Positions 1-57,375 of a stretch of 57,375 bases of DNA are shown piece by piece. The position numbers and the translations under genes are program-made. Each line of letters begins with the position of its first letter. Position 1 is the first letter of the stretch. The stretch covers positions 1 through 57,375 of the forward strand of contig JBAVXA010000210.1 of NCBI GenBank assembly GCA_049698095.1, in the 5' to 3' direction. The notes under the pieces were generated by a model. That model was not told where the DNA came from. It did not search any database and saw only the letters and a program-made list of their open reading frames with translations. The DNA is from Burkholderiales bacterium (lineage in GTDB: Bacteria; Pseudomonadota; Gammaproteobacteria; Burkholderiales; JBEEJL01).

Positions 1-447
1 GGTACGCAGATTAAACAGGCTCATGTCCGGCGTGCCGATGTCTTTCACCCAGAACGGCATCACCTGCATATAGCCGCGCGCACTCGCGGATGAAATGGCG
101 TATTTCTTGAAGCCGCTTTCCACTTGAATCAAACCCAATACCATTTGCGGATCGAGTCCGGCGCGAGTCGCTTCGTAGTGCACGGTGCGCAGGAACTCTT
201 CACGCTCGGCTCTCACCGGGAAAGCCTTCAGAAGTTTGCTGCCCATCGTATCCAGCCAACGCCGCTCTTCCGTCGGTGAGCTGAAAATACTTCTGGTGAT
301 GCCCTGGTCGCTGACCGCGCGCGACATGTTTGCGCGCACACTGGCTGACAGCATTTCCTGGGTTTGCGTGCCCGCGTTGGCGAACGACGCTGTCCCAAAA
401 ATAGCGGTTAAAGTTAAGTATTTGATTATATTAAATATTTTTTGCAT
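1..447 (-). CDS. Lytic transglycosylase (SLT domain), N-terminal part; the gene runs off the left edge
   Basis: Absent from the ORF track because it is open at the window edge. My reverse-strand translation from ATG 447 gives MQKIFNIIKYLTLTAIFGTASFANA (signal peptide), then GLDPQMVLGLIQVESGFKKYAISSASARGYMQVMPFW, which carries the catalytic E-S and GYMQ motifs of SLT enzymes. Track ORF 185..487(+) is its antisense shadow. Confidence 0.75.
   Translation of the reverse strand, partial: MQKIFNIIKYLTLTAIFGTASFANAGTQTQEMLSASVRANMSRAVSDQGITRSIFSSPTEERRWLDTMGSKLLKAFPVRAEREEFLRTVHYEATRAGLDPQMVLGLIQVESGFKKYAISSASARGYMQVMPFWVKDIGTPDMSLFNLRT
411..434 (-). repeat. AT-rich junction repeat, copy A
   Basis: Canonical orientation ttaatataATCAAatacTTAactt; exact WATCAANNNNTTR. 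Translated as part of the SLT signal peptide, 17 nt from the proS stop. Confidence 0.75.
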
Positions 448-450
448 CGC

Positions 451-2166
451 TCAGTTCAATTTAGCTACCAGTTTTGATTGTAGATGACTTACAGTATTTT
501 GCAGTGAAATACTTAACAGTTGTCCCTCGCGCCGTGCCTGATATTCCACTTCGCCCTTTTGCAAACCACGGTCGCCCACGACGATTCGATGAGGGATGCC
601 CATCAACTCGTGGTCGGCAAACATCACGCCGGGGCGTTCATCCCTATCATCGAGCAACACGTCGATGCCAGCAATACGCAAATCACTGTAGATTTTTTCT
701 ACAGCGGTTTTTACCGCTTCGCTTTTATTCAGTCCAATCGCCAGCAGGCTGACCTGGAATGGTGCCATCGCGTCCGGCCAGATAATGCCGCGCTCGTCGT
801 GATTCCGCTCAATCGCCGCGGCGACAATCCGCGACACGCCGATGCCGTAACAACCCATTTCCGCCACTTGTGTTTTGCCCGCCTCGTCGAGGAAATTCAC
901 TTTCATCGCCTCGGAGTATTTGGTGCGCAACTGGAAAATATGTCCGACTTCAATGCCGCGACAGAGTTCCAATGTACCCTTGCCGTCGGGCGATGCGTCG
1001 CCCGCGACGACGTTACGGATGTCGGCAATTTTCGTCGGCTCAGGCAAATCGCGGCCGAAATTCACGCCGGTCAAATGGAAGCCTTCGTCATTGGCGCCGC
1101 AGACAAAATCGCTCATCGCTGCGACCAAGCGGTCGGCGATGACAGGCAGCTTCAAACCCACCGGCCCAAGGTACCCCGGCGCAGTGTTAAGCCCCGCGCG
1201 AATTTCCACTTCAGTCGCCAAACGAAATCCGTCGGCAAATAATTTCGCCGCTTTGATTTCATTCAGTTGACGGTCACCGCGCAACAACAGCATCGTCAGT
1301 TGATTGTCACCACCCATCACGACCAAAGCCTTGACGGTTTTTCGTAATGGCAATTTGAGAAACTCGCTTACGTCTTCGCAGGTTTTTTTGTTCGGCGTGG
1401 CGACTTTATGCATCGCTTGCGTGGCGGTGGCGCGAGGAGTTTTCGGTGCGACGCCTTCAGCTAACTCCACATTAGCGGCATAATCGGAAGCCGAACAATA
1501 CGCGATGGCGTCTTCACCGGAATCGGCCAGCACGTGAAATTCATGCGAGCCCGACCCGCCGATTGCGCCGGGGTCGGCCGCCACGGGACGGAACTTTAGA
1601 CCGAGTCGGGTAAATATGCGCGAATAGGCGTCGTACATATCGGTATAGGTTTTTTCCAGCGATGGGTAATCGGCGTGGAACGAATATGCGTCCTTCATCA
1701 TGAATTCGCGCGCGCGCATCACGCCGAAACGCGGGCGGATTTCGTCGCGGAACTTGGTTTGTATCTGATAAAAATTCAACGGCAACTGGCGGTAACTTTT
1801 TATTTCGCGCCGCGCGATATCGCTGATCACTTCTTCATGCGTCGGGCCGAAACAGAAATCGCGCTCGTGGCGGTCCTTGATTTTTAGCATCTGCGGGCCG
1901 AAAACATCCCAGCGCCCACTCTCCTGCCATAACTCGGCCGGCTGAATTGCCGGCATCAACAATTCCACTGCGCCCGCCGCATCCATTTCCTCGCGCACGA
2001 TGTTTTCCACCTTGCGCAACACGCGCAAGCCGAGCGGCATCCAAGTGTAAAGCCCGCTTCCAAGCTTTTTGATCAAGCCCGCGCGCAGCATCAGCTTGTG
2101 GCTGGTCAGCTCTGCTTCAGCAGGTGCTTCTTTAAGCGTAGAAATAAAAAATTGCGATACGCGCAT
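451..2166 (-). CDS. proS: Prolyl-tRNA synthetase
   Basis: Long ORF with a canonical bacterial ProRS N-terminus ([19 protein letters not shown]) and a class II core plus insertion domain. I moved the start to the internal ATG (M11 of the track ORF) to match that N-terminus. Confidence 0.95.
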
Positions 2167-2361
2167 GACATATTCCGGAAAAACGAAAGCCGCCATTTTA
2201 CAACGGCGGCCGTTGATTCCCTAATGGCAAACGTACTGGTAAGGAAAAGAAAAAATTGTCATCGCGGCACAAGACTAACCATATGATTTTATTTGATTTT
2301 TATTGAAAACATACGCGGCGTCGACTTCATTGGCGACGATTCCAACATGGCGCGGATTGAA

Positions 2362-4410
2362 TCAAAAATTTCCGATAATGCTGAAGCGCACATTGCGCGG
2401 TTCGACCGGGTGGAAGTGAATATCATCCACTGGCACAGTTTCGTTTTTGAGTTGCGACGAATAGAAGTAATCGATGTCGCTGGCTTCGCGGTTGAGCAAA
2501 TTAAATATGTCGATGCTTGCTTTCCACCTCGGCGTAATGCGGTAACCGGCGCGCAGGTTGACCATCGTGGTGGCCTTGGACTTCTGGCTGCCGTCTTCAA
2601 GCAGTGGCCGCGGTCCGAAATAGCGAAGTTGCAGGCTGCCAAAAAAATTATGTAAATCATCGACGGTTATGCCAGCCGAAGCGACTTTGTCGATCGCGCC
2701 GGGAATCAGGCTGCCGGCGGCATCGGTATCGCTGAATCTCGCTTTCGAGCCGGACAGGCTTGCGTCGAGCAACAGCCATTTATTTGGTGTGTAATGCGCG
2801 CTCCATTCGATGCCGTGGCGTTTGCTCGGGCGCGTGGCCTCGGTCGTGCCGGCGTCGCCGACGAACAACAATTCCGAGTCGAGCTTGAGTTGCCATAAGG
2901 CCAGCGAGGTTTGAAGATTGGGAATGATTTCCGTGCGCAGGCCTAACTCGGCGCCGCGCGATTTCACCAGTGGGTGCACTCCAGCGACAGGCTGCAGCGT
3001 TTTCGGATCGACGGTCAATGTCGCGCCGCGCGCGTCATTGCTATGGAAACCGTTGCCGAGATTGGCGAAAAATTCCGTCTTGTCCCAAGGACCGGCGATG
3101 ACGCTGAGTTTTGGTGAAACCATGCTGTCATCGGAAGTACCGGAATTCTCCGCGGTGTTGCTGTTGACCTTGAAGCGATATTTGTCCGCGCGCAGCCCGA
3201 CAATGCTTCGCAGTTTGTCATTCCACTGCAAAGAATTTTCCGCAAATACGCCGAGGCTGGTTTGCTTCACTACATCAGCGCGGGTGAGGTTGGTGCGCTG
3301 GCGCGCGGTAGTGTCGTACAGCGCGACGTTATCGATTTGATCATGGCGCAATTGCACGCCAATCTTGGTGATACTTTCTTTACCACCGAGTTTGCCGAAC
3401 CACGAGCGGCTGCTGTTGAGGCCGTAAATCATGCGGCTGTCGGCTTGTTCGAATTGGTCGCCATTGATCGGGCCGGCGAGGAAAAAAGTGAAGTTGGAAA
3501 ACAGATTAAGCCGGTATTTAATCGCGTAGCTGTTGAAGGCGAATACACCGTTGTCAAGTTGTGATTTTTGCTCAAACGAAAAACTGTAGCGCGACGATTC
3601 GCCGCCGTCGGTCGGGTCAATGGTGCCGAAACGATTGAGTGAGCCATCCTGCACCGCGCGTAACGGAATCTGGTCCGTGCTGTTCCATTTGCTGTTATAG
3701 GCCATGCCGGTGAATGCGTAGCCGTTGTCGAGTGTGCCTTTGCTATAGCGCAATACGCCGTTGAATTTTTTCAGTTTGCTTGGGTTTTGCCATGGACCGT
3801 CGTTGTGCGCGACTTCGAGGCCATAGAGCAAATGGCCGCGTTGCAGGTCGGGCGAAGCCGCGATTAATCCGCGCTGAAAATTTTTCTGTCCCAGCGTAAT
3901 CTCTGCCAGGCTGCTCTTCAGCGAGTTGGCATAGAGGATATTCGCCGAACCTGCCGAGGAAAAGTCGCCCGAGTCGGCGAAGTACGGACCTTTTTTATAG
4001 TCCACGCGCGACACCAGTTCGGGCAGCAGGAAATTTAAATCCGAATACCCTTGTCCGTGCGCATGCGTCGGCATATTGACCGGCATTCCGGCGACGGAAG
4101 TGGCAAAGTCGGTGCCGTGATCGAGATTGAAACCGCGCAGGAAATATTGATTGGCTTTGCCTTCTCCGCTGTGCTGCGTAACGATTACGCCGGGTACGAA
4201 TTCGAGCACTTCGCCGGGTCGCTGCAGCGGCCGCGTTTCGATCAATTTTGCAGTGACGCTGCCTTGGCTGGCGGCGTCCGACGTGCCGACGCCATTGGCA
4301 TAATTTCCCTGGATTTCGATTTTTTCCAGAATTTCTGCGTCGTGGGCGAAAGCGTTACCGGAAAATGAAACAATAAGGCCCATGCTGCTGGAGCAAATGA
4401 ATTGACGCAT
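2362..4410 (-). CDS. TonB-dependent outer-membrane receptor
   Basis: 682 aa. Signal peptide ends AFA. Plug region GEVLEFVPGVIVTQHSGEGKANQYFLRGFNLDHGTDF. Long beta-barrel ending in a terminal aromatic (RFSIIGNF). Confidence 0.9.
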   Translation of the reverse strand: MRQFICSSSMGLIVSFSGNAFAHDAEILEKIEIQGNYANGVGTSDAASQGSVTAKLIETRPLQRPGEVLEFVPGVIVTQHSGEGKANQYFLRGFNLDHGTDFATSVAGMPVNMPTHAHGQGYSDLNFLLPELVSRVDYKKGPYFADSGDFSSAGSANILYANSLKSSLAEITLGQKNFQRGLIAASPDLQRGHLLYGLEVAHNDGPWQNPSKLKKFNGVLRYSKGTLDNGYAFTGMAYNSKWNSTDQIPLRAVQDGSLNRFGTIDPTDGGESSRYSFSFEQKSQLDNGVFAFNSYAIKYRLNLFSNFTFFLAGPINGDQFEQADSRMIYGLNSSRSWFGKLGGKESITKIGVQLRHDQIDNVALYDTTARQRTNLTRADVVKQTSLGVFAENSLQWNDKLRSIVGLRADKYRFKVNSNTAENSGTSDDSMVSPKLSVIAGPWDKTEFFANLGNGFHSNDARGATLTVDPKTLQPVAGVHPLVKSRGAELGLRTEIIPNLQTSLALWQLKLDSELLFVGDAGTTEATRPSKRHGIEWSAHYTPNKWLLLDASLSGSKARFSDTDAAGSLIPGAIDKVASAGITVDDLHNFFGSLQLRYFGPRPLLEDGSQKSKATTMVNLRAGYRITPRWKASIDIFNLLNREASDIDYFYSSQLKNETVPVDDIHFHPVEPRNVRFSIIGNF

Positions 4411-8644: not shown

Positions 8645-9217
8645 ATGAAAAACACAGAAAGGAATAACGATATTGCGCTGCTGTTGCTGTCCGCCGGTAA
8701 AGGGGACCAGAACGCATTCGAAAAACTTTATTCGCAGACTTCGGCGAATCTGTTTGCCGTTGCGATGCGTATATTGGGTCGTCAGGACTGGGCAGAAGAC
8801 GTGTTGCAGGAGTGCTACGTGCGGATTTGGCACAATGCGTCCGAATACGATTCGGCCAGGAGCGCACCGCTTACCTGGATGATCAGCATAGTCCGCAATA
8901 GCTGTATCGATAATTTGCGCCGCGCCGGTGTGCGGCCGCAGCAGCTCGGCGGAGATGAGATAGAAGATATGCTGGAAAATATAATTGAACCGTCATTGGG
9001 TCCGCAGGAATTGGCGCAGCAGAATCAACTGAGTGGGCACATAGAAAAGTGTCTCGAGCAACTCGCTCCGTCCGCTCGCCGCAATATTGAATTGGCTTTT
9101 TTTTACGGCTACAGCCATAGCGAACTGGCGGCGGAGCAAAAACAACCGATAGGCACAGTGAAATCGTTGATTCGGCGCGGCCTTGACAGCCTGAAAAATT
9201 GTTTGGGAATAGCATGA
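8645..9217 (+). CDS. ECF-type RNA polymerase sigma-70 factor
   Basis: 190 aa. Region 2 (DVLQECYVRIWHNA) and region 4 HTH (YSHSELAAEQKQPIGTVKSLIRRG). Confidence 0.9.
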   Translation: MKNTERNNDIALLLLSAGKGDQNAFEKLYSQTSANLFAVAMRILGRQDWAEDVLQECYVRIWHNASEYDSARSAPLTWMISIVRNSCIDNLRRAGVRPQQLGGDEIEDMLENIIEPSLGPQELAQQNQLSGHIEKCLEQLAPSARRNIELAFFYGYSHSELAAEQKQPIGTVKSLIRRGLDSLKNCLGIA

Positions 9218-9924
9218 ATTACCACGATCCGGATTTACGCAACGCACTGGCGGCCGAATACGCGCTCGGCACATTACAAGGAGCGGCGCGCAAGCGTTTC
9301 GAATCGCTATTGCACAACGACGCGGATTTGCAGCACCGGGTCGAGCAATGGCAGGCGTCGCTGTCTGTGCTGGCGCTGAGGCTCGCGCCGATTGCCCCGT
9401 CGCGCCGAGTCTGGAATCGCATTCGCGCGCAATTGTTCATGAAAAATGCGCCGGCAAATGATCCGTCCAAGTCCGGCCCAAGCTGGTGGAGCAATCTGGT
9501 TTTCTGGCGCGGCTGGGGTCTGGCCGCGACCGCCGCGGTCGCGGCATTGCTCGTATTCATCAGCGTCGTGCCGCCGCCTGAGGCGAAGCCGACTTATGTT
9601 GTCGTGCTGAGCAACCAGCAGGCGCAGCCGGTGATGTCGGTTGCCAGCGACAACCGGCAAAAGCAATTGCGCATAAAAATTATCGGCCAGCAGAAAATCG
9701 ACGCCGATCGGGATTATGAGTTGTGGGCATTGCCCAAGGGCGGGCCGCCGCGGTCGCTCGGCTTGGTGTCGGAACAAGGTGAGACGGTGTTGCTGGTGCC
9801 GAATACGATGCAAGGATTGACCGACATTCCTGCGCTAGCGATCAGCCTTGAACCCAAGGGCGGTTCGCCGACCGGTCAACCGACGGGCCCAGTCTTGTTT
9901 ACCGGGCCGGTCATCAAACTATGA
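9214..9924 (+). CDS. Anti-sigma factor (RskA-type C-terminal domain)
   Basis: ATGA start/stop overlap with the sigma gene. One central TM helix (WGLAATAAVAALLVFISVV). C-terminal YELWALPKGGPPRSLG...LAISLEPKGGSPTGQPTGPV is typical of anti-sigma-K-like proteins. Confidence 0.8.
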   Translation: MNYHDPDLRNALAAEYALGTLQGAARKRFESLLHNDADLQHRVEQWQASLSVLALRLAPIAPSRRVWNRIRAQLFMKNAPANDPSKSGPSWWSNLVFWRGWGLAATAAVAALLVFISVVPPPEAKPTYVVVLSNQQAQPVMSVASDNRQKQLRIKIIGQQKIDADRDYELWALPKGGPPRSLGLVSEQGETVLLVPNTMQGLTDIPALAISLEPKGGSPTGQPTGPVLFTGPVIKL

Positions 9925-11377: not shown

Positions 11378-12700
11378 ATGACCCGCGAAGGCAGCCTCGA
11401 AGCTCCCAAACGTCACCCGCTGGATTGGCATAATCCGGAATTCTACGACGAGAATTCCGTGATGGCCGAAATGCATCGCGTATTCGACATTTGTCACGGC
11501 TGCCGCCGCTGCTTCAATTTATGCAACGCGTTTCCATTGCTGTTCGACAAAATTGACGAGAGTCCCTCGAACGAACTCGACACTGTGCCGAAAAAAGTTT
11601 ACTGGGATGTGGTCGATCAATGTTATTTGTGCGACATGTGCTTCATGACCAAATGTCCGTACGTACCGCCGCATCAGTTCAATATCGATTTTCCGCACTT
11701 GATGTTGCGGGCCAAGGCGGTCAAATATAAAAACGGCGGTACGCACTTCCGCGACAAAATGCTCGCGAGCACCGACATCATGGGCAAACTCGCCAGCATT
11801 CCCGTGGTGGTGCAGGTAGTGAATAAGGTGAACAAAACGCCTGCCACGCGCAAGCTGCTGGAAGACGTGCTGAAAATCCACAAAGACCGAAAACTGCCTG
11901 AGTACGACAGTAAAAAGTTCCGCAGCACCATGATGCCTAGCGCGCAGTGGCCGGTGCGCGACGGCAAAAACACGCCGGGAAAAGTTGCAATCTACGCGAC
12001 GTGTTATATCAATTACAACGAACCAGGCATCGGCCACGATCTGGTAAAAATTCTGAACCACAACGAAATTCCGCATGTGCTGGTGGAAAAAGAAGCGTGC
12101 TGCGGCATGCCGAAATTCGAGCTGGGCGACCTCGAGGGGGTCGCGGCGCTGAAAGAAAAAAATATTCCGCATCTTGCCAAGCTGGCTAAGCAGGGTTACG
12201 CAATTCTCACCGCTGTTCCGTCTTGCACTTTGATGTACAAAAGCGAATTGCCCCTGATGTTCCCCGAAGATGCCGACGTCAAGGCGGTGGCCGAAGCCAT
12301 GTTCGATCCGTTCGAATATTTCATGCTGCGCAATGCCGACGGCTTACTCAATACGGATTTCAAAAAACCGTTAGGGAAGGTTTCTTATCACATCCCCTGT
12401 CACCTGCGCGTGCAGAATCTCGGGCAAAAAACCCGCGAGATGCTGCAACTTGTCCCCGACACAACGGTCAATACCGTTGAGCGCTGCTCCGGCCACGACG
12501 GAACCTGGGGCGTGAAAAAAGAATACTTCGACATGTCGATGAAAATCGGCAGGCCCGTGTTCAAGGCCATGGCGAATAACTCGCCCGACTACGTCAGCTC
12601 AGATTGCGCAATCGCCGGTCGCCATATACTTCAAGGGATGGGCACCGAAACGGAAAAGCAACACCCTTTATCATTAATTCGCATTGCTTACGGACTTTAA
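11378..12700 (+). CDS. (Fe-S)-binding oxidoreductase with CCG domains (GlpC / heterodisulfide-reductase-related)
   Basis: Two 4Fe-4S ferredoxin motifs (CHGCRRCFNLC, CYLCDMCFMTKCP) and two Cys-rich CCG-type segments (ACCGMP, CSGHDG). Confidence 0.85.
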   Translation: MTREGSLEAPKRHPLDWHNPEFYDENSVMAEMHRVFDICHGCRRCFNLCNAFPLLFDKIDESPSNELDTVPKKVYWDVVDQCYLCDMCFMTKCPYVPPHQFNIDFPHLMLRAKAVKYKNGGTHFRDKMLASTDIMGKLASIPVVVQVVNKVNKTPATRKLLEDVLKIHKDRKLPEYDSKKFRSTMMPSAQWPVRDGKNTPGKVAIYATCYINYNEPGIGHDLVKILNHNEIPHVLVEKEACCGMPKFELGDLEGVAALKEKNIPHLAKLAKQGYAILTAVPSCTLMYKSELPLMFPEDADVKAVAEAMFDPFEYFMLRNADGLLNTDFKKPLGKVSYHIPCHLRVQNLGQKTREMLQLVPDTTVNTVERCSGHDGTWGVKKEYFDMSMKIGRPVFKAMANNSPDYVSSDCAIAGRHILQGMGTETEKQHPLSLIRIAYGL

Positions 12701-12716
12701 TACAGGAACTTTAATT

Positions 12717-13301
12717 ATGGCCATTACCCGCGACAGTTTGATGACACTCGAAGCCTACGCGAAGGCGCGCAAGGATTTCCGTGCCAAAGTCATCGCGCAC
12801 AAAAAAAATCGCACCTTGCATCTGGGCGAACACGTCACTTTGTTGTTTGAAGACGAATTGACTATCCGTTATCAAGTGCAGGAAATGCTCCGCATTGAGA
12901 AGATTTTCGAAGAGCAGGGCATCGAGGAAGAGCTCAGCGCGTACAACCCGCTGATTCCCGAGGGCAGCAACTGGAAAGCGACCATGTTGATCGAATACGC
13001 CGACATCGACGAGCGCAAGGTTGCACTGTCCAAATTGGTCGGCGTGGAAGACAAAGTCTGGGTGCGCGTGTTGGGTTTCAACCGCGTTTATGCCATTGCC
13101 GACGAAGACATGGAACGCGATCGCGAAGGCAAAACTTCATCGGTACATTTTTTGCGCTTCGAGCTCACGCGCGAAATGGTGGCCGCCTTGAAGGCCGGAG
13201 CCGACGTTGGCATGGGCGTAGATCATCCGAAATACCTGGTGTTGATAGATGAGATCGATCCGGTTTCACGTCAGGCTTTGGTAAACGATTTACGCGGTTA
13301 A
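12717..13301 (+). CDS. DUF3501 family protein
   Basis: About 195 aa, directly after the CCG Fe-S gene. The sequence (MAITRDSLMTLEAYAKARKDFRAKVIAHKKNRTLHLGEH...) matches my recollection of DUF3501. The start is set at ATG 12717. Confidence 0.7.
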   Translation: MAITRDSLMTLEAYAKARKDFRAKVIAHKKNRTLHLGEHVTLLFEDELTIRYQVQEMLRIEKIFEEQGIEEELSAYNPLIPEGSNWKATMLIEYADIDERKVALSKLVGVEDKVWVRVLGFNRVYAIADEDMERDREGKTSSVHFLRFELTREMVAALKAGADVGMGVDHPKYLVLIDEIDPVSRQALVNDLRG

Positions 13302-13382: not shown

Positions 13383-14651
13383 ATGTTTCCCGCGAAATTG
13401 AGTCCTGTCGAATCCACGCTTGATGCGTTGCAGGCCCGCCTGCAGCGCATCAAACTTCCCGTCGCTATTAAATTATGGAATAACAGGCTGCTGGTCGGCG
13501 ACGCGCCGGTGCGCGTAACTATTTCCCTTAATACGCCGCAAACACTGAGTTTATTCGTCCGCCCGGACATCAGCCGGTTCGCAGAGTATTACGTGCAGAA
13601 AAAAATCGACCTCGAGGGCAACGTGCGCGACATTGTGTCCATGCTTGCTCCGTTGCTCGAGATCAGCGGAAAGGCGGAGAGCAAATTAGCCACGGTGGCA
13701 CATTTATTTCGCCACACGCGCAGCCGCGACAAGCAGGCGATACAGTTCCACTATGACGTGAGCGATGATTTTTACGCACTGTGGTTGGACCGGCGCCGGG
13801 TGTACTCCTGCGCTTATTTTAAAACCGAGCAGGATTCACTTGACCTCGCGCAGGAGCAGAAACTCGATCTTATCTGCCGGAAGCTGGCCATCAAACAGGA
13901 TGAACGGGTACTCGACATCGGCTGCGGCTGGGGCGGCATGATTTTCTGGGCGGCGGAGAAATACGGTGCAAATTGCACTGGAATTACCCTGAGCGAAAAC
14001 CAGCGCGATTATGTTCAGCAGCAGATCGTCGCGCGTGGGCTGGAAGGAAAAGTCGAAGTCAGGTTACAGGACTATCGCGACGTGCCGGAAGAAAACATAT
14101 TCGACAAAATCATCAGCGTCGGTATGGTTGAACACGTCGGGACACGCAATCTAGGAGAATATTTCAATAAAATCAATAGGTTGTTGAAGCCGGGTGGGCT
14201 GCTGATGAATCACGGCGTCACCTCTTCAACCATGGACAACGACTACATCCGCGGCGGCGGCGCGGATTTTATCCAACGTTATGTTTTTCCCGAGGGTGAG
14301 TTGGCGCATGTTTCCAAGGTGCTCGACGCAATGGGACGCGAAAAACTCGAATGTCTCGATGTGGAAAATCTGCGGCCACACTACGCCGAGACTTTGTGGC
14401 ATTGGGTCGAGCGACTGGAAGCGCAACAGCAGCAAGCAGTCGAAATTGTGGGCGAAGAGAAATACCGCATCTGGCGTGCCTATATGGCGGGCTTCGCCTA
14501 CGCGTTCGAACAGGGTTGGGATGCGATTTATCAGGTCGTCGCAGCGAAGCCGCTAAAGGACGGTAGCGTACCGACATATCCGTTTACGCGGGACTATATG
14601 TATCAGGCTCCATTGCCTCCTTTTCAAGGCGGCGGCAGCTTGTCATCCTGA
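13383..14651 (+). CDS. Cyclopropane-fatty-acyl-phospholipid synthase family SAM-dependent methyltransferase
   Basis: SAM motif VLDIGCGWGG and Cfa-like flanking regions (YDVSDDFYALWLD, HYAETLWHW). An alternative GTG start lies at 13371. Confidence 0.85.
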   Translation: MFPAKLSPVESTLDALQARLQRIKLPVAIKLWNNRLLVGDAPVRVTISLNTPQTLSLFVRPDISRFAEYYVQKKIDLEGNVRDIVSMLAPLLEISGKAESKLATVAHLFRHTRSRDKQAIQFHYDVSDDFYALWLDRRRVYSCAYFKTEQDSLDLAQEQKLDLICRKLAIKQDERVLDIGCGWGGMIFWAAEKYGANCTGITLSENQRDYVQQQIVARGLEGKVEVRLQDYRDVPEENIFDKIISVGMVEHVGTRNLGEYFNKINRLLKPGGLLMNHGVTSSTMDNDYIRGGGADFIQRYVFPEGELAHVSKVLDAMGREKLECLDVENLRPHYAETLWHWVERLEAQQQQAVEIVGEEKYRIWRAYMAGFAYAFEQGWDAIYQVVAAKPLKDGSVPTYPFTRDYMYQAPLPPFQGGGSLSS

Positions 14652-17927: not shown

Positions 17928-18896
17928 GTGAACATAGACAACCTCCGCAGTGTGATCGACGCCGACATGCGCGCAGTAGACGACGTCATACGCGAAAAGC
18001 TTTACTCCGAAGTAGCACTGATCCGCAAGATTTCCGATTACATCATTCTGTCGGGCGGCAAACGGCTGCGCCCGGCGCTGGTTTTGCTGTCGGCAGGCGC
18101 CTTCGGCTATCAGGGCAGGGCTCATCACGAGCTTGCCGCCTTGGTTGAATTTATCCACACCGCGACGCTGCTGCACGATGACGTTGTAGATGAGTCGCAA
18201 ATGCGCCGCGGTAAAGAAACCGCAAACGCCCTTTTCGGGAATGCGGCGAGCGTGCTGGTCGGCGACTTTCTTTACTCGCGCGCATTCCAGATGATGGTCA
18301 GCGTCGGGTCGATGCGCGTAATGGAAATTCTGTCCGAGGCAACCAACGTCATCGCCGAGGGCGAGGTACTGCAGCTGATGAATGTGCACGATGCCGACAT
18401 CGATGAGGAAAATTACTTGCGCGTGGTGCGCTACAAAACCGCCAAACTGTTCGAAGCCGCGACGCGCTTGGGCGCAATCATCAGCCGCGCATCGAAAATT
18501 GACGAAGACGCTATGGCGTCTTACGGCATACATCTTGGCACGGCGTTTCAACTGATCGACGACGTACTCGATTATTCCGGGGATCAGGACGAGATGGGAA
18601 AAAATATCGGCGATGATCTCGCAGAGGGCAAGCCGACTTTGCCACTGATCTACGCCATGCGCATGGGCAGTAAAAAACATGCCGACGTGGTGCGCCACGC
18701 GATCGAGCAGGGCGGCCTCGCCGACCTAGCCGGCGTCGCGGAAGCGATCAGGGCAACGGGGGCGCTCGACTATGCGCGCGGCCAGGCCCGATATGAAGCC
18801 AGCGTGGCGACTGCTGTTATCGCGCATTTGCCGAATTCAATTCACAAGGATTGTTTGTTACAATTGTGCGAGTTTGCAGTCGCACGGAATTTCTAA
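17928..18896 (+). CDS. ispB: Octaprenyl-diphosphate synthase (trans-polyprenyl synthase)
   Basis: 322 aa with two DDxxD motifs (LLHDDVVDES, QLIDDVLDY). Divergent from rplU, as in many proteobacteria. Confidence 0.9.
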   Translation: MNIDNLRSVIDADMRAVDDVIREKLYSEVALIRKISDYIILSGGKRLRPALVLLSAGAFGYQGRAHHELAALVEFIHTATLLHDDVVDESQMRRGKETANALFGNAASVLVGDFLYSRAFQMMVSVGSMRVMEILSEATNVIAEGEVLQLMNVHDADIDEENYLRVVRYKTAKLFEAATRLGAIISRASKIDEDAMASYGIHLGTAFQLIDDVLDYSGDQDEMGKNIGDDLAEGKPTLPLIYAMRMGSKKHADVVRHAIEQGGLADLAGVAEAIRATGALDYARGQARYEASVATAVIAHLPNSIHKDCLLQLCEFAVARNF

Positions 18897-19004: not shown

Positions 19005-19028
19005 CTAATATAATCAATTAGTTACAAT
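19005..19028 (+). repeat. AT-rich junction repeat, copy F
   Basis: ctaatataATCAAttagTTAcaat; exact IHF-type core. Starts 8 nt after tRNA-Pro. Confidence 0.75.
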
Positions 19029-19068
19029 GCATACGGTTTGTGCTCAGTGCACAGAAAAGAACGAGTGC

Positions 19069-20142
19069 ATGACCAAATCCTTCGCTAAAAAATCAAAATC
19101 GGCAGATCTGCCTGCAGCGGGCGGCAAGTTGCAGATGGCCGACATCGCGCGGCTGGCCGGCGTTTCCACCGCTACCGTGTCGCGCGCGCTGAACAAAAGT
19201 GCATTGGTAAATGATGAAACGCGCGAACGCATCGAACAACTTGCGCGTTCTTTAAATTATTCCATCAACGTGGGCGCGAAAAATTTCCGCCTCGGCCACA
19301 ACCGTACGATCGCCGTGGTTGTCCCTTACGATTCCGCCACGCGGCAACATATTTCCGACCCGTTTTTCCTCAGTATGCTCGGCAGTCTTGCCGACGCGCT
19401 GACGGATCGGGGTTTCGACATGTTGCTGTCCCGCGTCGATGCCGACAAACTCGATTCGGTGGCGCAGCTTCACGACTCGGGCCGTGCCATCGGTATCATC
19501 CTGATCGGCCAATGGCGCCACCACGACCAGTTGAATGAATTGGCATCGCGTCACGTGCCGGTTGTCGTGTGGGGCGCGCAGCTGCCGCGCCAATTGTATT
19601 GCACTATCGGCAGCGACAATGTCACCGGCGGTTTTCTGGCGACGGAACACCTGATCAAGGCCGGGCGGAAACGCATAGCGTTTTTCGGCGACGTAAATTT
19701 ACCCGAGGCGGCACAGCGCTTCGAAGGATATCAACGTGCGCTGGCAAAATACAAAGTCAAGCCGGATAAGCAGCTTTGCCTGTCAGTACCGTTTCTGGCC
19801 GAAAGCGCGCGCAAGGCGGTACACGACCTTTGCCGGCAGAATATCGGTTTCGATGCGATTTTCGCCTGCAGCGATTTACTCGCCATGACTGCCATCAGCA
19901 CGTTGCGCGACGAGCATCTGCGCGTGGCGGACGATGTTGCTGTCGTCGGATATGACGATATCGAGCTCGCACGATATTTTCACCCGCCCCTCAGCACCAT
20001 CCGCCAGCCGATAGATCTTGCCGGGCGCGCATTGGTTGAAGCACTGGTTAAAATACTTGAGGGCGCGCGTCCGGCGCCGGAAATACTGCCGACGCAACTC
20101 ATCGTGCGCGCCAGCAGCGTCGTGGAATCCCCGCGCAAGTAA
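19069..20142 (+). CDS. LacI-family transcriptional regulator (sucrose locus)
   Basis: HTH MADIARLAGVSTATVSRALN plus a periplasmic-binding-protein-like sugar domain. Start uncertain (ATG 19069, or the downstream MADIA). Confidence 0.85.
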   Translation: MTKSFAKKSKSADLPAAGGKLQMADIARLAGVSTATVSRALNKSALVNDETRERIEQLARSLNYSINVGAKNFRLGHNRTIAVVVPYDSATRQHISDPFFLSMLGSLADALTDRGFDMLLSRVDADKLDSVAQLHDSGRAIGIILIGQWRHHDQLNELASRHVPVVVWGAQLPRQLYCTIGSDNVTGGFLATEHLIKAGRKRIAFFGDVNLPEAAQRFEGYQRALAKYKVKPDKQLCLSVPFLAESARKAVHDLCRQNIGFDAIFACSDLLAMTAISTLRDEHLRVADDVAVVGYDDIELARYFHPPLSTIRQPIDLAGRALVEALVKILEGARPAPEILPTQLIVRASSVVESPRK

Positions 20143-20332
20143 ACCGCCGTTTTCTGTAATCGATTGTGATTCGCCTTAACGCAAACCTCCTTCTTTAGTT
20201 AATCCCTGTTGCAGATTCGCGACACCCACAAATCCTCGCTTTGCGTGGAGCAAATTCGTTTAATTACCTGAAAGCAATGAATATTGGGTTGGCAGGGTTG
20301 ATTTTGCTGCCAGTTATGTTGCGGCGCAAGAT

Positions 20333-20346
20333 TGCAATCGATTGCA
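20333..20346. promoter_or_regulatory. Candidate LacI-type operator TGCAATCGATTGCA
   Basis: Perfect 14-bp palindrome with a central CG, about 95 nt upstream of the TonB-dependent receptor start. A weaker look-alike, TGTAATCGATTGTG, lies at 20155..20168. Confidence 0.55.
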
Positions 20347-20441
20347 GTGAATGTATCCTACGCGTGCGCTGCTCCCGTTTCCACCGCAGAAGAATGGGGG
20401 CGAAGCAAGTAAACGTCCCCAAAAACCCACAGGAGATACTC

Positions 20442-22751
20442 ATGGCATCACGTACGCAAAACAAACCCGTAATACGCCCATTGGCCCTCGCCATCATGGC
20501 ACTCGCATCTGCGCAAGCTTTTGCGCAAGAAGCAAAGAAAGATGACTCGCCGATGAGTCTCGATGCAGTTGTGGTAACCGGTCAAACGCAAGGCATTTCG
20601 AAAATGAAATCCAGCGTTTCCATCAGCACCATGGATGACGAGCAAATTGCACGCAGCGGCGCAACCAATACGGCGGAGTTACTGCGTTCCATCCCCGGCA
20701 TTCGTTCTGAGTCGTCCGGCGGTGACAGCAATGCCAACGTAACGGCCCGCGGCGCGCCGATTTCTGCAGGCGGATCGCGTTATGTGCAATTTCAGGAAGA
20801 CGGCTTGCCGACCCTGCTGTTCGGGGACATTGCATTTGCGACGCCCGATACATTCGTGCGTACCGACTACAACGTTGACCGGCTCGAAGTTATCCGCGGC
20901 GGTTCTGCTTCCACCCTGGCAACCAACTCGCCCGGCGGCATCATCAACTTCATCAGCAAGACCGGCAAGGAATCGACCGGCGGAAATCTGGGCTACACCA
21001 TAGGCGGCGCGCGTTATAACCGCCTCGACTTTGATTACAGCGCCAAGGACAACGACAAGACCTACACCCACATCGGCGGCTTTTACCGCCTCGGCGAAGG
21101 CGGCCCGCGCGATTCCGGCGTCAACGTCGAAAAGGGCGGACAGCTTAAGGCAGCTATCACGCGCGAATTCGATAAGGGTTACGTGCGCGTTAACTTCAAG
21201 TTCCTCAATGACAACACGCCCAGCTACCTTCCCGTGCCGGTTAAATTCTCTAACGGCAGCATTTCCGAATTGCCCGGTATCGACCCACGTACGGCAACTT
21301 TCTACTCGCCCTACCTGATGACCGACCACACCTTGACGCGTGACAACGGCATGGTGTCGACCAACCTGAATGATGGCTTCCTGGCGAAAACCACAGCGTT
21401 TGGCGTTGAAGCGAAGTTCAATTTGCCCGGCGATATCGTACTGGATGAAAAATTCCGTATGGCGGCAAATTCCGGCCGCTTTGTTGCAATATTCCCCGGA
21501 AGCGATGTTGCTGCTGCTCCGGCCGGAACGACCTACGTCACAGGTCCGCGCGCAGGCCAAGCCTTCACCGGCAATGCCTTTTCTGCTGTGGTTTTCAACA
21601 CCTCGCTCGACGATTTCGGCCTGACCGTCAACGATGTAAAACTGACCAAGAACTTTAATACCGCTGACAGCAAGATCAGTTTAACAGGCGGTATGTTCAC
21701 GGCGTTGCAAAAGCTCGACGTAACATGGAACTTCAACCAATATCTGCTCGAAGCGGTTGGCCAGCGCGCCGCTGTACTGAGCGATGCGAATAACGGCAAG
21801 GTTGCTTTCGGCGGATGCTGTTCCAACACCAGCGTTTCCGATTACAAGGCCATTTCTCCGTACTTGCAGATCGGCACCGAAATGGGCGCATTTAACGGTG
21901 ATGTCAGCGTACGGCGCGACCGCATGGCCGCAACCGGGACCTATAATCAGCTGCTGTTTGCCCCGGCCGGTTCTACAACTTACGACCAGACCAAAGAGCG
22001 CGTCATCGACTGGAACGCCAACCGGACTTCATTCTCGCTTGGCGGAAACTATCGTGTGACAAAAGACACATCGCTATTCGCGCGTTACAGCGATGGCGCG
22101 TCATTCATGGCAGACCGCATCACGTTCTTCAATGATCCTAAACTTGTAAACGGTCAGTCGCCGGTGCCGATTAACATTATCAAACAGGCTGAAGGCGGCG
22201 TGAAATGGCGCAGCGGTGGCTTGAGCACCTTTGTTACGCTGTTCAACGCCAAGACTGACGAACAGAACGTCGACCTGACTTCGGCGACCCCGGTGCTCAA
22301 GGCGAACAAGTACGATTCCAAAGGTGTTGAAGTAGAAGCGGCGTACTACACCGGCGGATTCCGTCTGGGCGGCGGTGTGACCTACACCAAAGCCAAAGTT
22401 ACGGAATCTAGCGATGCTGCGCGTGTCGGCAAGGCGCCAAAGCGTCAGGCCGATTTCGTGTATCAGCTTACACCGTCGTATAACTTCGGCAATCTGAATG
22501 TCGGCCTCAGCATACTCGGGACCACCGACTCGCAAGACGATAGCCCAGCCGGTCCATTGACTGTCAAGTTGCCTGGCTATACTGTCCTGAATGCATTCGC
22601 CAATTATGAATTCGCACAGGGATTGATGGCGTCGGTCGGTATCAACAATCTGACCGACCAGATCGGCTACACAGAGAGCAATGACGGTCGTCAGGCCGCT
22701 CGCTCAATCAACGGCCGCTCGGTTCGCGCTACTCTGAAATACTCGTTCTAA
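20442..22751 (+). CDS. TonB-dependent receptor (SuxA-like position in the sucrose locus)
   Basis: RBS AGGAGA then ATG. Signal peptide ends AFAQE. Plug (LDAVVVTG...NTAELLRSIPG) and barrel ending RATLKYSF. Confidence 0.9.
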   Translation: MASRTQNKPVIRPLALAIMALASAQAFAQEAKKDDSPMSLDAVVVTGQTQGISKMKSSVSISTMDDEQIARSGATNTAELLRSIPGIRSESSGGDSNANVTARGAPISAGGSRYVQFQEDGLPTLLFGDIAFATPDTFVRTDYNVDRLEVIRGGSASTLATNSPGGIINFISKTGKESTGGNLGYTIGGARYNRLDFDYSAKDNDKTYTHIGGFYRLGEGGPRDSGVNVEKGGQLKAAITREFDKGYVRVNFKFLNDNTPSYLPVPVKFSNGSISELPGIDPRTATFYSPYLMTDHTLTRDNGMVSTNLNDGFLAKTTAFGVEAKFNLPGDIVLDEKFRMAANSGRFVAIFPGSDVAAAPAGTTYVTGPRAGQAFTGNAFSAVVFNTSLDDFGLTVNDVKLTKNFNTADSKISLTGGMFTALQKLDVTWNFNQYLLEAVGQRAAVLSDANNGKVAFGGCCSNTSVSDYKAISPYLQIGTEMGAFNGDVSVRRDRMAATGTYNQLLFAPAGSTTYDQTKERVIDWNANRTSFSLGGNYRVTKDTSLFARYSDGASFMADRITFFNDPKLVNGQSPVPINIIKQAEGGVKWRSGGLSTFVTLFNAKTDEQNVDLTSATPVLKANKYDSKGVEVEAAYYTGGFRLGGGVTYTKAKVTESSDAARVGKAPKRQADFVYQLTPSYNFGNLNVGLSILGTTDSQDDSPAGPLTVKLPGYTVLNAFANYEFAQGLMASVGINNLTDQIGYTESNDGRQAARSINGRSVRATLKYSF

Positions 22752-22761
22752 TGCAACCTCC

Positions 22762-22810
22762 TCACCGCATGTCGTCCCCCACAGGGGGGATGAGATGCGG
22801 TGATTTTTTT
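22762..22810 (+). terminator. Rho-independent terminator after the receptor gene
   Basis: tcaccgcat ... atgcggtga stem with inner tccccc/ggggga pairing, followed by TTTTTTT. Confidence 0.8.
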
Positions 22811-22838
22811 ATCTCTTTTCGATCATTAGAAATAATAT

Positions 22839-22862
22839 TCAATTAAATCATATAGTTATAAA
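22839..22862 (+). repeat. AT-rich junction repeat, copy G (variant)
   Basis: tcaattaaATCATatagTTAtaaa. Lies between the receptor terminator and the sucrose phosphorylase start. Confidence 0.7.
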
Positions 22863-22896
22863 TGTGTTTAATCGAATGTTCATTTGGCCGGCCATA

Positions 22897-24414: not shown

Positions 24415-24430
24415 ATTTGCAGGAGCCAAT

Positions 24431-25747: not shown

Positions 25748-25770
25748 TTCCGCGTAAATCCACTCGCGAC

Positions 25771-25805
25771 AATCGGCCAGCTTTGTGCTGGCCGATTTGT
25801 TTATA
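25771..25805 (+). terminator. Rho-independent terminator after the transporter gene
   Basis: Stem aatcggccagc / gctggccgatt, loop tttgt, then TGTTTAT. Confidence 0.7.
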
Positions 25806-25839
25806 ATGCATGGTTGCAGCCGCAGTCTGCGTATAATAT

Positions 25840-25863
25840 TAAATATTATCAATGACTTATAAT
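25840..25863 (+). repeat. AT-rich junction repeat, copy H
   Basis: taaatattATCAAtgacTTAtaat; exact IHF-type core. Contains the glk ATG at 25852. Confidence 0.75.
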
Positions 25864-27752: not shown

Positions 27753-27866
27753 GCCGCGCAGTACGCAGCGGTTGAGCGTGGCCAATCTGCGGTAAATGTA
27801 ATTTTTCAGCCGACGGCGTGCGCAAGGCATTGCCTGCGCCATCACCCTTCATCCTTCAATTCCGCC

Positions 27867-28752: not shown

Positions 28753-28776
28753 GTTATAAGTATTTGAATATATTAA
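28753..28776 (-). repeat. AT-rich junction repeat, copy I
   Basis: ttaatataTTCAAatacTTAtaac (minus strand); matches copy K at 21 of 24 positions. Fills the fbp/prk junction. Confidence 0.75.
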
Positions 28777-30800: not shown

Positions 30801-30809
30801 TAAAATGTT

Positions 30810-30833
30810 CCAATATAAACAATATGTTAGTAA
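30810..30833 (+). repeat. AT-rich junction repeat, copy J
   Basis: ccaatataAACAAtatgTTAgtaa. Lies at the cbbS/cbbX junction and overlaps the cbbS stop codon. Confidence 0.6.
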
Positions 30834-52695: not shown

Positions 52696-52703
52696 GTATT
52701 TCA

Positions 52704-54519: not shown

Positions 54520-54530
54520 ATAGTTATGAA
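54507..54530 (+). repeat. AT-rich junction repeat, copy N
   Basis: taaatataATCATatagTTAtgaa. Overlaps the start codon and first codons of the minus-strand MBL gene. Confidence 0.75.
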
Positions 54531-54739
54531 TGGCGCGCGATCTGACAATGGAACGACATTACGTGTGCGTGAGATTGTATGGTAATGCTTTTCGTTGCAT
54601 TGGTAAGCGCAAATAAATCGTTACACCAACTTGCGCGCGTGGATATATGCGTGGTGCAATGGCTAGCTGCTGGCATAGACATTGCGATAATTCGACAAAC
54701 ACCTCATCGGAGCGAAAAGTGACTGACCATAGCGACGCA

Positions 54740-55744: not shown

Positions 55745-55837
55745 GCCGATGGCGGAGCCGGCAATTTTCAGCATGGCGCGGATTTTCCTCCCGATGGCGA
55801 TACGCGAGCCAAAGCGGCGCAAGGCGAGTCGGAGCGG

Positions 55838-56776
55838 GTGCAGACCGCATTCGCGCTGGACGCAAAGTACGTACCGGCAAGCGATGATCGGGCCGGTTAC
55901 CGCCCATGGCGGAGCGCGGCATTAGCTATGCTCGGCGAGTTCCATTACCGCATCAACGCGCGCGCGGGCGGTTATTTCCCCGGTCACCATCGCAGTGTGC
56001 AACCCGGCGGCGCGTTCGAGTTTCGCGGCCACGTGCCGCTGCTCGACCGGCCGGATGCGCGTCGACTTGATGTTCACGTCAGTCTGCGCGATCCGTTCGG
56101 CGGCTGGGTGGTGCGCGATTTCAAGCAACGCAGCAGCGTGCCGTTATATGTCATCGGCGATATTTCCGCGTCGATGGGGTTTGCCGGCCTCGCAGGGCGT
56201 AAACTCGACGTATTGGCGGACATTCTTGCCTCGGCCGCCTACTCGGCACATCGTACCGGCGACCGTTTCGGTTTTGTCGCCTGCGATACGCAAGTGCGCG
56301 AAGAGTTTTTTCAGCCGCCAAGTCATTTGCGCGGCGCTGGTGCGGCAGCGGAAAAGGCGTTGCGCGGGTTAACGCCAACCGGCAAAAAAGCCGACGGATT
56401 GCTCGACGCGCACAAATATCTGGCCCGCCAGCGCGCGCTGATTTTTCTGGTGTCGGATTTTCATTTTCCCGTTAAATTGCTCGATGACATTATGCAAACC
56501 TTGTCGCGACACCAGGTTATCCCGCTGGTGTTATGGGACGCTGCCGAATACGCAAACCTGCCTAATTACGGCTTCGCCACCTTGCGCGATAGCGAGAGCG
56601 GCAGACAACGCAGCGTGTGGATGCGTCCGAAACTGCGCGAGCGCATCCGGGCGCATTTTGCGCAACATCGCGCGGCGATGGAGCAGATCTTCATGCAACG
56701 ACAATCGCCGGCGGTTTTTCTGCAAGGCAGGTTCGAACCTGACCTACTCACGCAATATTTTTATAGTCATGCGTAA
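55838..56776 (+). CDS. DUF58 (vWA-like) protein, MoxR partner
   Basis: YVIGDISASMGF (DxSxS MIDAS-like motif) and FLVSDF. Start uncertain (GTG 55838 or ATG 55928). Confidence 0.8.
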   Translation: MQTAFALDAKYVPASDDRAGYRPWRSAALAMLGEFHYRINARAGGYFPGHHRSVQPGGAFEFRGHVPLLDRPDARRLDVHVSLRDPFGGWVVRDFKQRSSVPLYVIGDISASMGFAGLAGRKLDVLADILASAAYSAHRTGDRFGFVACDTQVREEFFQPPSHLRGAGAAAEKALRGLTPTGKKADGLLDAHKYLARQRALIFLVSDFHFPVKLLDDIMQTLSRHQVIPLVLWDAAEYANLPNYGFATLRDSESGRQRSVWMRPKLRERIRAHFAQHRAAMEQIFMQRQSPAVFLQGRFEPDLLTQYFYSHA

Positions 56777-57375
56777 CCTGGTTGCTCTGTTTTTTTGCCT
56801 GCTGACTTTGCCGCTGGCTGCCAACGCAGAGCAGAAACCGGCGGAGGCCAACACGGAAAATAACGGCGCGGCGCAGGTTAGCGTGCGCACGCTTGACCCA
56901 CGACCGTTTGGCTATGTCATTGGCGATGAATTGTCTCGGCGCATTGAAATTGATACGCCGCCGAGTTTTAAACTGTCTGCCGATTCGTTGCCGCGCCCCG
57001 GCCGGGTCGATGCCTGGCTGGAGCTGCGCAAAATAGCGGTGGCGCAAAAAGCATATGGTGCCAACGTACGGCACACGCTCGACCTGCGTTATCAGATTCT
57101 CAATTCACCGCAAGCCGTGAAAACCCATTATCTACCGAAGATATTGATTATATTAAATAATAATGATCAAATGCAACCGGTAGAGATTAACGAAACGCCA
57201 TTCACGCTTGCGCCGATCACGCCGGCGTTTGTGCTCGCCCGTGACGGTCTCGAGGAATTGCGCGCAGATAGACCCGCCCCGTTGATCGACGCGTCAGCGC
57301 ATTATTGGCGCCTCGGTTTTGCTGCATTGGCAACTGCGGCTGCGTTGTTTTCGTTGATTTATATAAAGTGGGGCA
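56769..57375 (+). CDS. Exported protein of unknown function (MxaA-like position after MoxR/DUF58); runs off the right edge
   Basis: Absent from the track because it has no stop in the window. The ATG overlaps the DUF58 stop (ATGCGTAA). My translation: MRNLVALFFCLLTLPLAANA EQKPAE...YLPKILIILNNNDQMQPVEINETPF...LFSLIYIKWG, with no stop through 57375. Confidence 0.65.
   Translation, partial: MRNLVALFFCLLTLPLAANAEQKPAEANTENNGAAQVSVRTLDPRPFGYVIGDELSRRIEIDTPPSFKLSADSLPRPGRVDAWLELRKIAVAQKAYGANVRHTLDLRYQILNSPQAVKTHYLPKILIILNNNDQMQPVEINETPFTLAPITPAFVLARDGLEELRADRPAPLIDASAHYWRLGFAALATAAALFSLIYIKWG
57133..57156 (-). repeat. AT-rich junction repeat, copy O (intragenic)
   Basis: ttaatataATCAAtatcTTCggta (minus strand). 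Lies about 120 codons inside ORF 56769..>57375 and is read as KILIILN. Confidence 0.6.

Follow-up and report, generated by a model that had tools for sequence, protein, structure and literature searches.

Results

Identification of AT-rich modules at gene junctions

The window analyzed here is a 57,375-bp stretch of DNA (53.8% GC) from a Burkholderiales bacterium, contig JBAVXA010000210.1, whose gene junctions carry a family of AT-rich modules resembling binding sites for integration host factor (IHF). Among the junctions involved are obgE/proB, fbp/prk, cbbS/cbbX, and SoxYZ/SorA-like, names given when the stretch was first read and confirmed here by Pfam. That first reading, hereafter the original prediction, listed 15 related copies of a 24–30-nt unit in a GC-rich background. 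We found each copy at the start reported for it, 10 in the plus orientation (5362, 9937, 15897, 19005, 22839, 25840, 30810, 35822, 37776, and 54507) and five in the minus orientation (411, 10824, 28753, 52672, and 57133). Its hand counts were exact as well: the copy at 35822 (K) matches those at 411 (A) and 52672 (M) at 20 of 24 positions each and that at 28753 (I) at 21 of 24, and six copies contain the exact IHF core WATCAANNNNTTR. The copies do stand in a background richer in GC, which at the composition of the window is only moderately so.

When put in one orientation, the 15 copies form a gap-free alignment. The conserved unit is a 34-nt A+T-only block, AAAAATATTTAATATAATCAAATAGTTATAAT, and thus longer than first described, as it adds an upstream A-tract and an AA step. 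A position weight matrix (PWM) built from the copies gives 16 hits in the window at 26.9 bits or more, namely the 15 listed copies and one weaker copy beyond that list at 2271–2304. The modules are given below with the coordinates and strand of the 34-nt block, the orientation relative to transcription where scored, and the PWM score.

410–443, minus strand: IHF-type module, 7 nt 3′ of the proS stop codon and upstream of the next minus-strand gene; sense; exact WATCAANNNNTTR; 46.7 bits
2271–2304, minus strand: weaker extra copy, between a TonB-dependent receptor gene and proS; 26.9 bits
5353–5386, plus strand: module between the stop codon of a TPR gene and a DUF3455 gene; antisense; exact core; 41.7 bits
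9928–9961, plus strand: module 3 nt past the stop codon of an anti-sigma gene, upstream of a NUDIX gene; sense; 35.0 bits
10823–10856, minus strand: module directly against the Shine-Dalgarno sequence of the rubrerythrin gene, 10 nt upstream of its start; antisense; 38.5 bits
15888–15921, plus strand: module filling the 35-nt obgE/proB spacer; antisense; 47.9 bits
18996–19029, plus strand: module beginning at the 3′ end of tRNA-Pro, upstream of a LacI-family gene; exact core; 44.4 bits
22830–22863, plus strand: module between a TonB-dependent receptor gene and an alpha-amylase-family gene; sense; 43.6 bits; orthologue in L206 at 18282–18315
25831–25864, plus strand: module overlapping the glk start codon (25852); exact core; 40.9 bits; orthologue in L206
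28752–28785, minus strand: module filling the 39-nt fbp/prk spacer; sense; 40.1 bits; kept in L001, L206, and L209
30801–30834, plus strand: module from the cbbS stop to the cbbX start, 26-nt spacer; antisense; 28.2 bits
35813–35846, plus strand: module 3′ of a 115-aa hypothetical gene, at the edge of a ~15-kb block; exact core; 48.9 bits; orthologues in L206 and L209
37767–37800, plus strand: module flanked by two genes of the minus strand, one for a 450-aa protein and one GH17-like; antisense; 44.3 bits
52671–52704, minus strand: module in the 53-nt SoxYZ/SorA-like spacer; sense; exact core; 46.6 bits
54498–54531, plus strand: module in the divergent MBL-fold/MoxR region, overlapping the longest-ORF (open reading frame) start of the MBL-fold gene; 43.7 bits
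57132–57165, minus strand: module ~10 nt upstream of a plus-strand ORF running off the window end; antisense; TTR element degraded to TTC; 29.0 bits

L001, L206, and L209 are the three sister species described below. The cbbS/cbbX copy is the most degenerate in the window and is stronger in all three of them.

The exact core WATCAANNNNTTR occurs nine times in the window compared with 1.83 expected from dinucleotide shuffles; none of 100 shuffles reached nine, and six of the nine occurrences lie in family copies. A 22-nt consensus, allowing up to three mismatches, gave seven matches against an expectation of 0. At 25 bits or more, the PWM found 12 hits in the scanned spacers and none in 100 dinucleotide shuffles within each spacer. 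Leave-one-out scores against an 88%-AT background were 8–27 bits, compared with an average best hit of 9.6 bits (95th percentile, 14) in random 6-kb sequence at 88% AT. These scores uphold the claim that the similarity goes beyond low complexity: the repeat family is real and not a low-complexity artefact. The PWM was trained on the window copies, and an untrained pattern gives the same picture.

Apart from the family, the gene for cyclopropane-fatty-acid synthase contains an exact match to the IHF core (AATCAATAGGTTG), preceded by an AA step (14155–14188; 20 bits). It is the only candidate within a coding region and could be either a chance match or an intragenic IHF site.

Architecture of the 34-nt unit

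The canonical IHF site is 34 bp long and has four elements: WATCAR, TTR, two steps, usually AA, placed 9 bp apart where prolines intercalate, and an optional A-tract of 4–6 A in the 5′ half of the strand that carries WATCAR; complete sites are preferred ~2500-fold (PMC1874591). The consensus of the modules runs from an A-rich 5′ part through TTAAT, ATAATCAA, ATAG or ATAC, and TTA to TAAT. ATCAA is matched at four or more of its five positions in all 15 copies and exactly in seven. TT followed by a purine is present in 13 of the 15, with the TTR element four bases past the core, and in 14, the AA of ATCAA is preceded by an AA step at a distance of exactly 9 bp. The 5′ run of A, at least four long in nine copies and at least three in 12, ends 7–13 nt before ATCAA. 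All four canonical IHF elements are present in the block in the correct register. Information content rises and falls over the 34 columns, peaking on the IHF contact elements and dipping at the NNNN spacer and past TTR, and the block is asymmetric, with a length equal to the size of the IHF footprint (~34–35 bp). The motif also contains a partial interrupted palindrome, TATAA-N8-TTATA.

The copies form no hairpins when folded with 10-nt flanks (mean fold z 0.08). The copies likewise lack terminal inverted repeats and any consistent direct repeats or target duplications at the block ends, and their flanks share no sequence. Together with the occurrence in both orientations, the lack of hairpins, terminal repeats, and target duplications fits a site for a protein that binds duplex DNA.

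Gene context of the copies

Every copy lies within ~60 nt of a gene end, in agreement with the closeness to start and stop codons described originally. In the window, 15 copies occupy co-directional junctions and one a divergent junction, whereas the five convergent junctions have none; across the clade of the window and its sister species, 0 of 11 convergent junctions carry a copy. Fourteen copies in co-directional junctions could be scored for orientation to transcription, of which nine are sense and five antisense. Modules are found in ~40% of the co-directional gene junctions in this lineage and always adjoin a downstream gene start. Strong copies are confined to spacers, reaching at most a few bases onto a gene end or, in glk, over the start codon. 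The fbp/prk module runs between the stop codon of fbp and the Shine-Dalgarno sequence of prk, the cbbS/cbbX module overlaps the stop codon of cbbS and directly adjoins the ATG of cbbX, and the first five codons of glk are encoded by the 3′ half of the glk module.

Two of these starts have further features. After the MFS gene, 34 nt before the glk module, lies a strong terminator-like hairpin (25771–25797; 11 pairs, 7 of them G-C, with a T-rich tail), which implies separate start signals for glk, within or close to the module. At cbbX, no recognizable Shine-Dalgarno sequence precedes the ATG, which stands directly past the T-run of the antisense module, in the window (30798–30826), L001, L206, or L209. 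This suggests that cbbX relies on translational coupling or on initiation dependent on an A/U-rich leader.

Such placements could also be explained if the modules were parts of sigma-70 promoters (a UP-like A-tract plus TATAAT) or A/U-rich, unstructured translation leaders, with only an incidental resemblance to IHF sites. This would account for the constant presence of a gene start beside the copies and their absence from convergent junctions, for the TATAAT in which many copies end, and for the several copies that lie 0–20 nt from a Shine-Dalgarno sequence or start codon or, as in glk, contain the start codon. The missing clear Shine-Dalgarno sequence of cbbX and the strong terminator before the glk copy, which requires a promoter nearby, point the same way. 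However, five of the 14 co-directional copies are antisense to the downstream gene, and orientation is kept across species. No −35 hexamer is found 16–18 bp from the TATAAT, and the most conserved bases (ATCAA and TT) would sit in the promoter spacer. A scan for consensus sigma-70 promoters gave no excess (12 found and 13.2 expected), the only match at a module being a weak one (9 of 12 positions, 22827–22856) that overlaps the 22830 copy, and the specificity of the motif is far above AT-richness. The case made earlier against a simple promoter role holds, given the two orientations and the peak of conservation where the sigma-70 spacer would be, and we consider the promoter or leader explanation quite unlikely.

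No sigma-54 promoter (TGGCAC-N5-TTGCW, within ~100 bp downstream) was found beside the copies, and matches with up to two mismatches numbered 33 compared with 38.5 expected. Terminators showed no excess at the copies, the one strong terminator (25771–25797) standing apart from them. An Rfam scan of the window returned tRNA-Pro only, and an exact-match look-up of the 440-aa CCG-domain protein returned no record.

Conservation of the modules among sister species

The window species is also represented, at 99–100% identity, in NCBI assembly GCA_049696075.1 and in a Logan run. For comparison, we used ~105 kb of clade sequence including three sister species: L001 (ObgE 92% identical, ~83–85% nucleotide identity), L206 (CbbX 91%), and L209 (CbbX 84%). 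The antisense cbbS/cbbX module and the sense fbp/prk module occupy the same junction in the same orientation in all four genomes. In L206, modules are also found at SoxYZ/SorA, at the start of glk, and in the junction of the TonB-dependent receptor and amylase genes, and the module 3′ of the 115-aa gene is present in both L206 and L209.

Identity of orthologous 34-nt blocks is 0.71–0.84, compared with 0.50–0.56 at the 4-fold degenerate sites of cbbS, cbbX, fbp, and prk. Mean identity is 0.76 for orthologous pairs, 0.64 for paralogous pairs within a genome, and 0.65 for paralogous pairs between genomes, where composition alone would give 0.40; the copies cluster by locus and not by genome. Blocks more conserved than 4-fold sites, and orthologues more alike than paralogues, indicate purifying selection and vertical descent. 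The modules thus appear to be under purifying selection at orthologous junctions, as independently maintained binding sites. The comparison of orthologue and paralogue identities showed signs of neither concerted evolution nor recent copying.

Origin and turnover of the modules

Alignment of orthologous junctions, proposed in the original prediction as a check, showed that copies differ by presence or absence and that spacers without a module are shorter. The obgE/proB spacer is 35 nt long in the window and 0–8 nt in the motif-free Gallionellaceae loci L002–L016; the cbbS/cbbX spacer is 26–27 nt in the clade and 9 nt, without the motif, in L211. Overall, junctions with a module are ~17–30 nt longer than those of relatives without one. 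The shorter spacers of more distant, motif-free relatives show that the modules entered as insertions in the clade ancestor and are thus ancient. Turnover is also seen among the sisters. L209 has no SoxYZ/SorA copy but a 132-nt hairpin-bearing spacer instead, and it carries an MBL/SoxYZ copy where the window and L206 have none. L001 lacks both the copy after tRNA-Pro and the adjacent 8.8-kb sugar gene block.

The longer junctions with a module (obgE/proB and cbbS/cbbX), the gain and loss among sisters at MBL/SoxYZ and SoxYZ/SorA, and the lineage-specific density would all be expected of a miniature mobile or copy-and-paste element, that is, a bare IHF-site cassette that is still spreading and whose abundance reflects selfish amplification. 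Ongoing spread should leave paralogues of one genome alike, but they are no more similar than paralogues of different genomes, and orthologues are more similar. The structural hallmarks (terminal inverted repeats, target duplications, and hairpins) are missing, the flanks are unrelated, and no transposase is encoded in the window. Copies persist under selection though synonymous sites are near saturation. In addition, a ~15-kb block unique to the window, described below, is empty of copies across 38–50.8 kb despite six spacers long enough. We regard current mobility of this kind as very improbable. The miniature insertion element put forward as a candidate role therefore stands as far as an insertional origin is concerned and fails as a description of present behavior, given the missing terminal repeats and duplications, the dissimilar paralogues, and the almost empty block. 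Similarly, the term repeat family is apt in that the similar copies are real, whereas it overstates common descent by copying.

A role as a recombination or uptake signal, also raised originally, was not supported. We rejected an uptake sequence of the DNA uptake sequence or uptake signal sequence (DUS/USS) type because copies never lie deep in genes and form no inverted pairs, and the same sequence occurs in contigs resembling several orders.

Several side observations concern the regions around the modules. The 8.8-kb block (19005–27850) directly follows tRNA-Pro and encodes a LacI-family regulator, a TonB-dependent receptor, an alpha-amylase-family protein, an MFS transporter, glucokinase, and a PfkB kinase; it adjoins prk in L206 and L209. 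In its place, L001 has tRNA-Pro, a hairpin, and then the prk flank. No integrase is present. The block may represent a tRNA-adjacent island; alternatively, L001 may have lost it by deletion. The ~15-kb block (35.8–50.8 kb) has 51% GC compared with 54–56% elsewhere and encodes DUF3280, GH17-like, GH81, and GH1 proteins, a sugar ABC transporter, and a LacI-family regulator. It is present in the window only and absent from L206 and L209, where the cytochrome c gene and the 115-aa gene that it parts are 1.6–1.8 kb apart. The block is probably a recent acquisition for beta-glucan use. At this position, L206 has a Gp49-family/HTH_37 (HigB/HigA-like) toxin-antitoxin pair (3575–4209). Finally, the cbbX/fbp spacer measures 21 nt in the window, 176 nt in L206 (10915–11092), and 383 nt in L209 (10924–11308); in L209, it holds tandem G+C-rich palindromic units (GTAGGTCAGGTTGCGGCGCG...CGCCGTTACCTGACA) of a family that resembles repetitive extragenic palindromes (REPs) and is unrelated to the AT-rich modules.

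Distribution beyond the clade

At 30 bits or more, the PWM finds one site per 4.4 kb in the window, one per 4.3 kb in the sister species, and one per 7 kb in L013, compared with one per 1,270 kb in 78 obgE loci of other Betaproteobacteria and none in L211, 50 kb of Escherichia coli, or phage lambda. Under an untrained definition of a complete site (WATCAR-N4-TTR plus the AA step), the window, the sister species, and L013 have 12–19 sites per 100 kb, and the other 1.27 Mb has 0.63. Addition of an A4 tract changes these values to 6–19 and 0, respectively. Complete sites are therefore at least 20-fold denser in the clade than in the 78 other loci. L013 (Betaproteobacteria bacterium K_Offshore_80m_m2_113) belongs to an unrelated lake lineage with 60% GC; its sites, for example 9187–9220, 12685–12718, and 19480–19513, have a slightly different filler consensus (AAAAAATATTAAATAAAATCAAATACTTAC). 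These observations suggest that at least two betaproteobacterial lineages from freshwater expanded IHF-type modules independently.

The motif extends beyond the window genome. The family pattern is also present in L013, L016, L055, and L057, and a scan of metagenome contigs for AATATAAWCAAATASTTATA matched >120 contigs, ~55 of which have 50–67% GC. In the latter, the match is an isolated AT island whose flanks, although outside the search pattern, reproduce the family consensus (ATAAAATATTCAAT ... ATAAT). Genes on some contigs are closest to Uliginosibacterium (Rhodocyclales, 70–77% amino acid identity), to Andreprevotia and Crenobacter (Neisseriales, 58–69%), and to Gallionellaceae (84%), an approximate taxonomy that rests on protein similarity to named loci. 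Genes of the GC-rich contigs were called from GC content at third codon positions, which resolved 17 contexts: 10 divergent, seven co-directional, and no convergent ones, indicating that a gene start is always adjacent. Eight convergent contexts from crude longest-ORF calls were discarded, as all disappeared with the improved calls.

The occurrence of the motif in contigs resembling several orders implies a conserved trans-acting factor. Besides IHF, this factor could be another abundant betaproteobacterial DNA-binding protein with IHF-like specificity, either a global regulator or a nucleoid protein of the DNABII, HU-like, or another type. Such a protein would fit copies that are more alike than E. 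coli IHF demands, as well as the partial palindrome noted above and the restriction of dense complete sites to some lineages, which could track a lineage-specific protein. Against such a protein stands the combination of asymmetry, 34-bp size, and four spaced elements, which is specific to IHF, while a range of several orders suggests a universally conserved factor. To our knowledge, the motif is also unlike the consensus sites of Fur, FNR, Lrp, Fis, and H-NS, which again argues against this explanation, and it differs from those of dif and the DnaA box. We judge a binder other than IHF to be improbable.

Discussion

IHF as the probable binder of the modules

The asymmetry of the module, its use in either orientation, the lack of RNA structure, selection acting site by site, and recurrence across lineages point to a conserved protein that binds duplex DNA, and the four IHF elements in register at footprint length point to IHF as that protein. 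We infer that each copy is probably a stand-alone, near-optimal site for IHF (IhfA/IhfB), with a likely architectural role. What the analysis shows is the anatomy of the modules, their statistics and positions, their conservation at orthologous junctions, their insertional origin, and their lineage-specific density; the binder and the effect of its bend are inferences. The IHF-type nucleoid-protein site named among the candidate roles in the original prediction is thus well supported at the level of sequence and evolution, through the four elements, purifying selection, and recurrence in other betaproteobacterial lineages.

Known sites provide a control. The window-trained PWM was run on phage lambda (48.5 kb), where ranks 1, 2, and 4 fell on what we take to be the pL-upstream site, cos I1, and the attP H2 region. 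The presumed attP H′ site (27748–27781) was found in the correct register and on the correct strand; these names are not in the annotation of the record. The RefSeq annotation of E. coli K-12 (1–50 kb) has no REP, RIP, or IHF features and was unusable as a control. In E. coli, IHF occupies nearly all of the 2293 instances of its motif recorded by ChIP-exo (chromatin immunoprecipitation with exonuclease digestion), with enrichment <400 bp upstream of transcription units, and the roles proposed for IHF include nucleoid organization, insulation of neighboring genes, and regulation of initiation (PMC9104697). The location rules of the modules, as analyzed here, agree with this behavior.

Several observations qualify the assignment to IHF. 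In phage Mu, the operator-region site scored only ~7 bits with the window PWM. Uniformity among the copies far exceeds that of proven E. coli and lambda sites, none of which reaches 30 bits with this PWM, and IHF specificity alone may not explain the additional conservation, namely the TAT before ATCAA, the ATAG or ATAC at the NNNN spacer, and the TATAAT after TTR. Unusual places for IHF are also occupied by modules that bridge stop and start codons within operons or that, in glk, include a start codon; these could equally be A/U-rich translation-initiation regions. Moreover, tblastn with E. coli IhfA and IhfB found no ihfA or ihfB homologue in the window or in ~105 kb of clade sequence, a sample too small, relative to the genome, for a judgment on their presence. 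IHF occurs generally among Proteobacteria.

If IHF does bind, it would contact the minor groove of the module and bend the DNA by ~160° into a U-turn, with the two AA steps 9 bp apart as the positions of the kinks made by proline intercalation. A sharp, fixed bend just upstream of a gene start would shape the geometry of local or internal promoters and separate adjacent co-directional transcription units topologically, and the modules would contribute to nucleoid organization. As a tentative and rather doubtful extension, we envisage a genome-wide "IHF punctuation," in which bare 34-bp IHF modules were inserted, independently in this uncultured Gallionellaceae-related clade and in at least one other freshwater betaproteobacterial lineage (L013), into ~40% of co-directional junctions, including core operons (cbbS/cbbX, fbp/prk, obgE/proB, and soxYZ/sorA), and were kept by selection. 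A U-turn bend ahead of many cistrons might then couple nucleoid architecture to operon-internal expression or replace the conventional signals between cistrons.

Should the sites bind IHF, this lineage would be a natural extreme case, with near-perfect sites before many genes, even in the Calvin-cycle operon, kept by selection across species. It would offer a convenient system for studying whether a fixed bend where a gene begins serves insulation, internal promoters, or the translation context and help to define the optimal IHF sequence outside the enterobacteria. For annotation, such AT islands would best be read as candidate protein-binding sites and not as mobile repeats, promoters, or uptake signals.

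Comparison with known systems

No account of this family turned up in the searchable literature, and string searches with 13-mers returned unrelated matches only, such as predicted OmpR sites in Acidithiobacillus. Three known systems are nevertheless close in some respects.

Correia elements (CREE/NEMIS) of Neisseria resemble the modules in being betaproteobacterial intergenic repeats that contain an IHF site and often occur within operons or upstream of genes (PMC3184786). They are MITEs, transposable elements of the miniature inverted-repeat kind, of ~104–157 bp (PMC3184786), whereas the module measures 34 bp and clusters by locus rather than by genome. A Correia-like MITE was rejected because the module has no terminal inverted repeat or target duplication, is too short, and shows no signal of recent mobility. 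Correia elements have 26-bp terminal inverted repeats, TA duplications, RNA stem-loops, and recent mobility, none of which the modules share.

The RIP (repetitive IHF-binding palindromic) or BIME-1 elements of E. coli likewise make up a family scattered between genes and bearing an IHF site (PMC3184786). Their IHF site, however, lies between inverted G+C-rich REP palindromes, whereas the modules are A+T-only and without palindromes, hairpins, or convergent copies. RIP/BIME-1 elements are found mostly at the 3′ ends of transcription units. Identity with them was rejected, as REP palindromes do not flank the modules, a result reflected in the fold z and the unshared flanks.

The closest counterparts are the IHF sites of E. 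coli and lambda (attP H′ and cos I1), which are likewise 34 bp long and asymmetric, with an A-tract, AA steps 9 bp apart, WATCAR, and TTR, and which are mostly intergenic, upstream of transcription units, and in either orientation (PMC1874591, PMC9104697). They differ in score, as 12 of the 15 modules reach 35–49 bits and the known sites at most 25 bits with the window-trained PWM, and in placement, as many modules fill whole intra-operon spacers and overlap stop or start codons; the sites reported here are predicted ones. Taken together, these comparisons indicate that the modules represent a known kind of site, predicted IHF sites, rather than a new kind of element, and that they are notable for their density, uniformity, intra-operon placement, and conservation.

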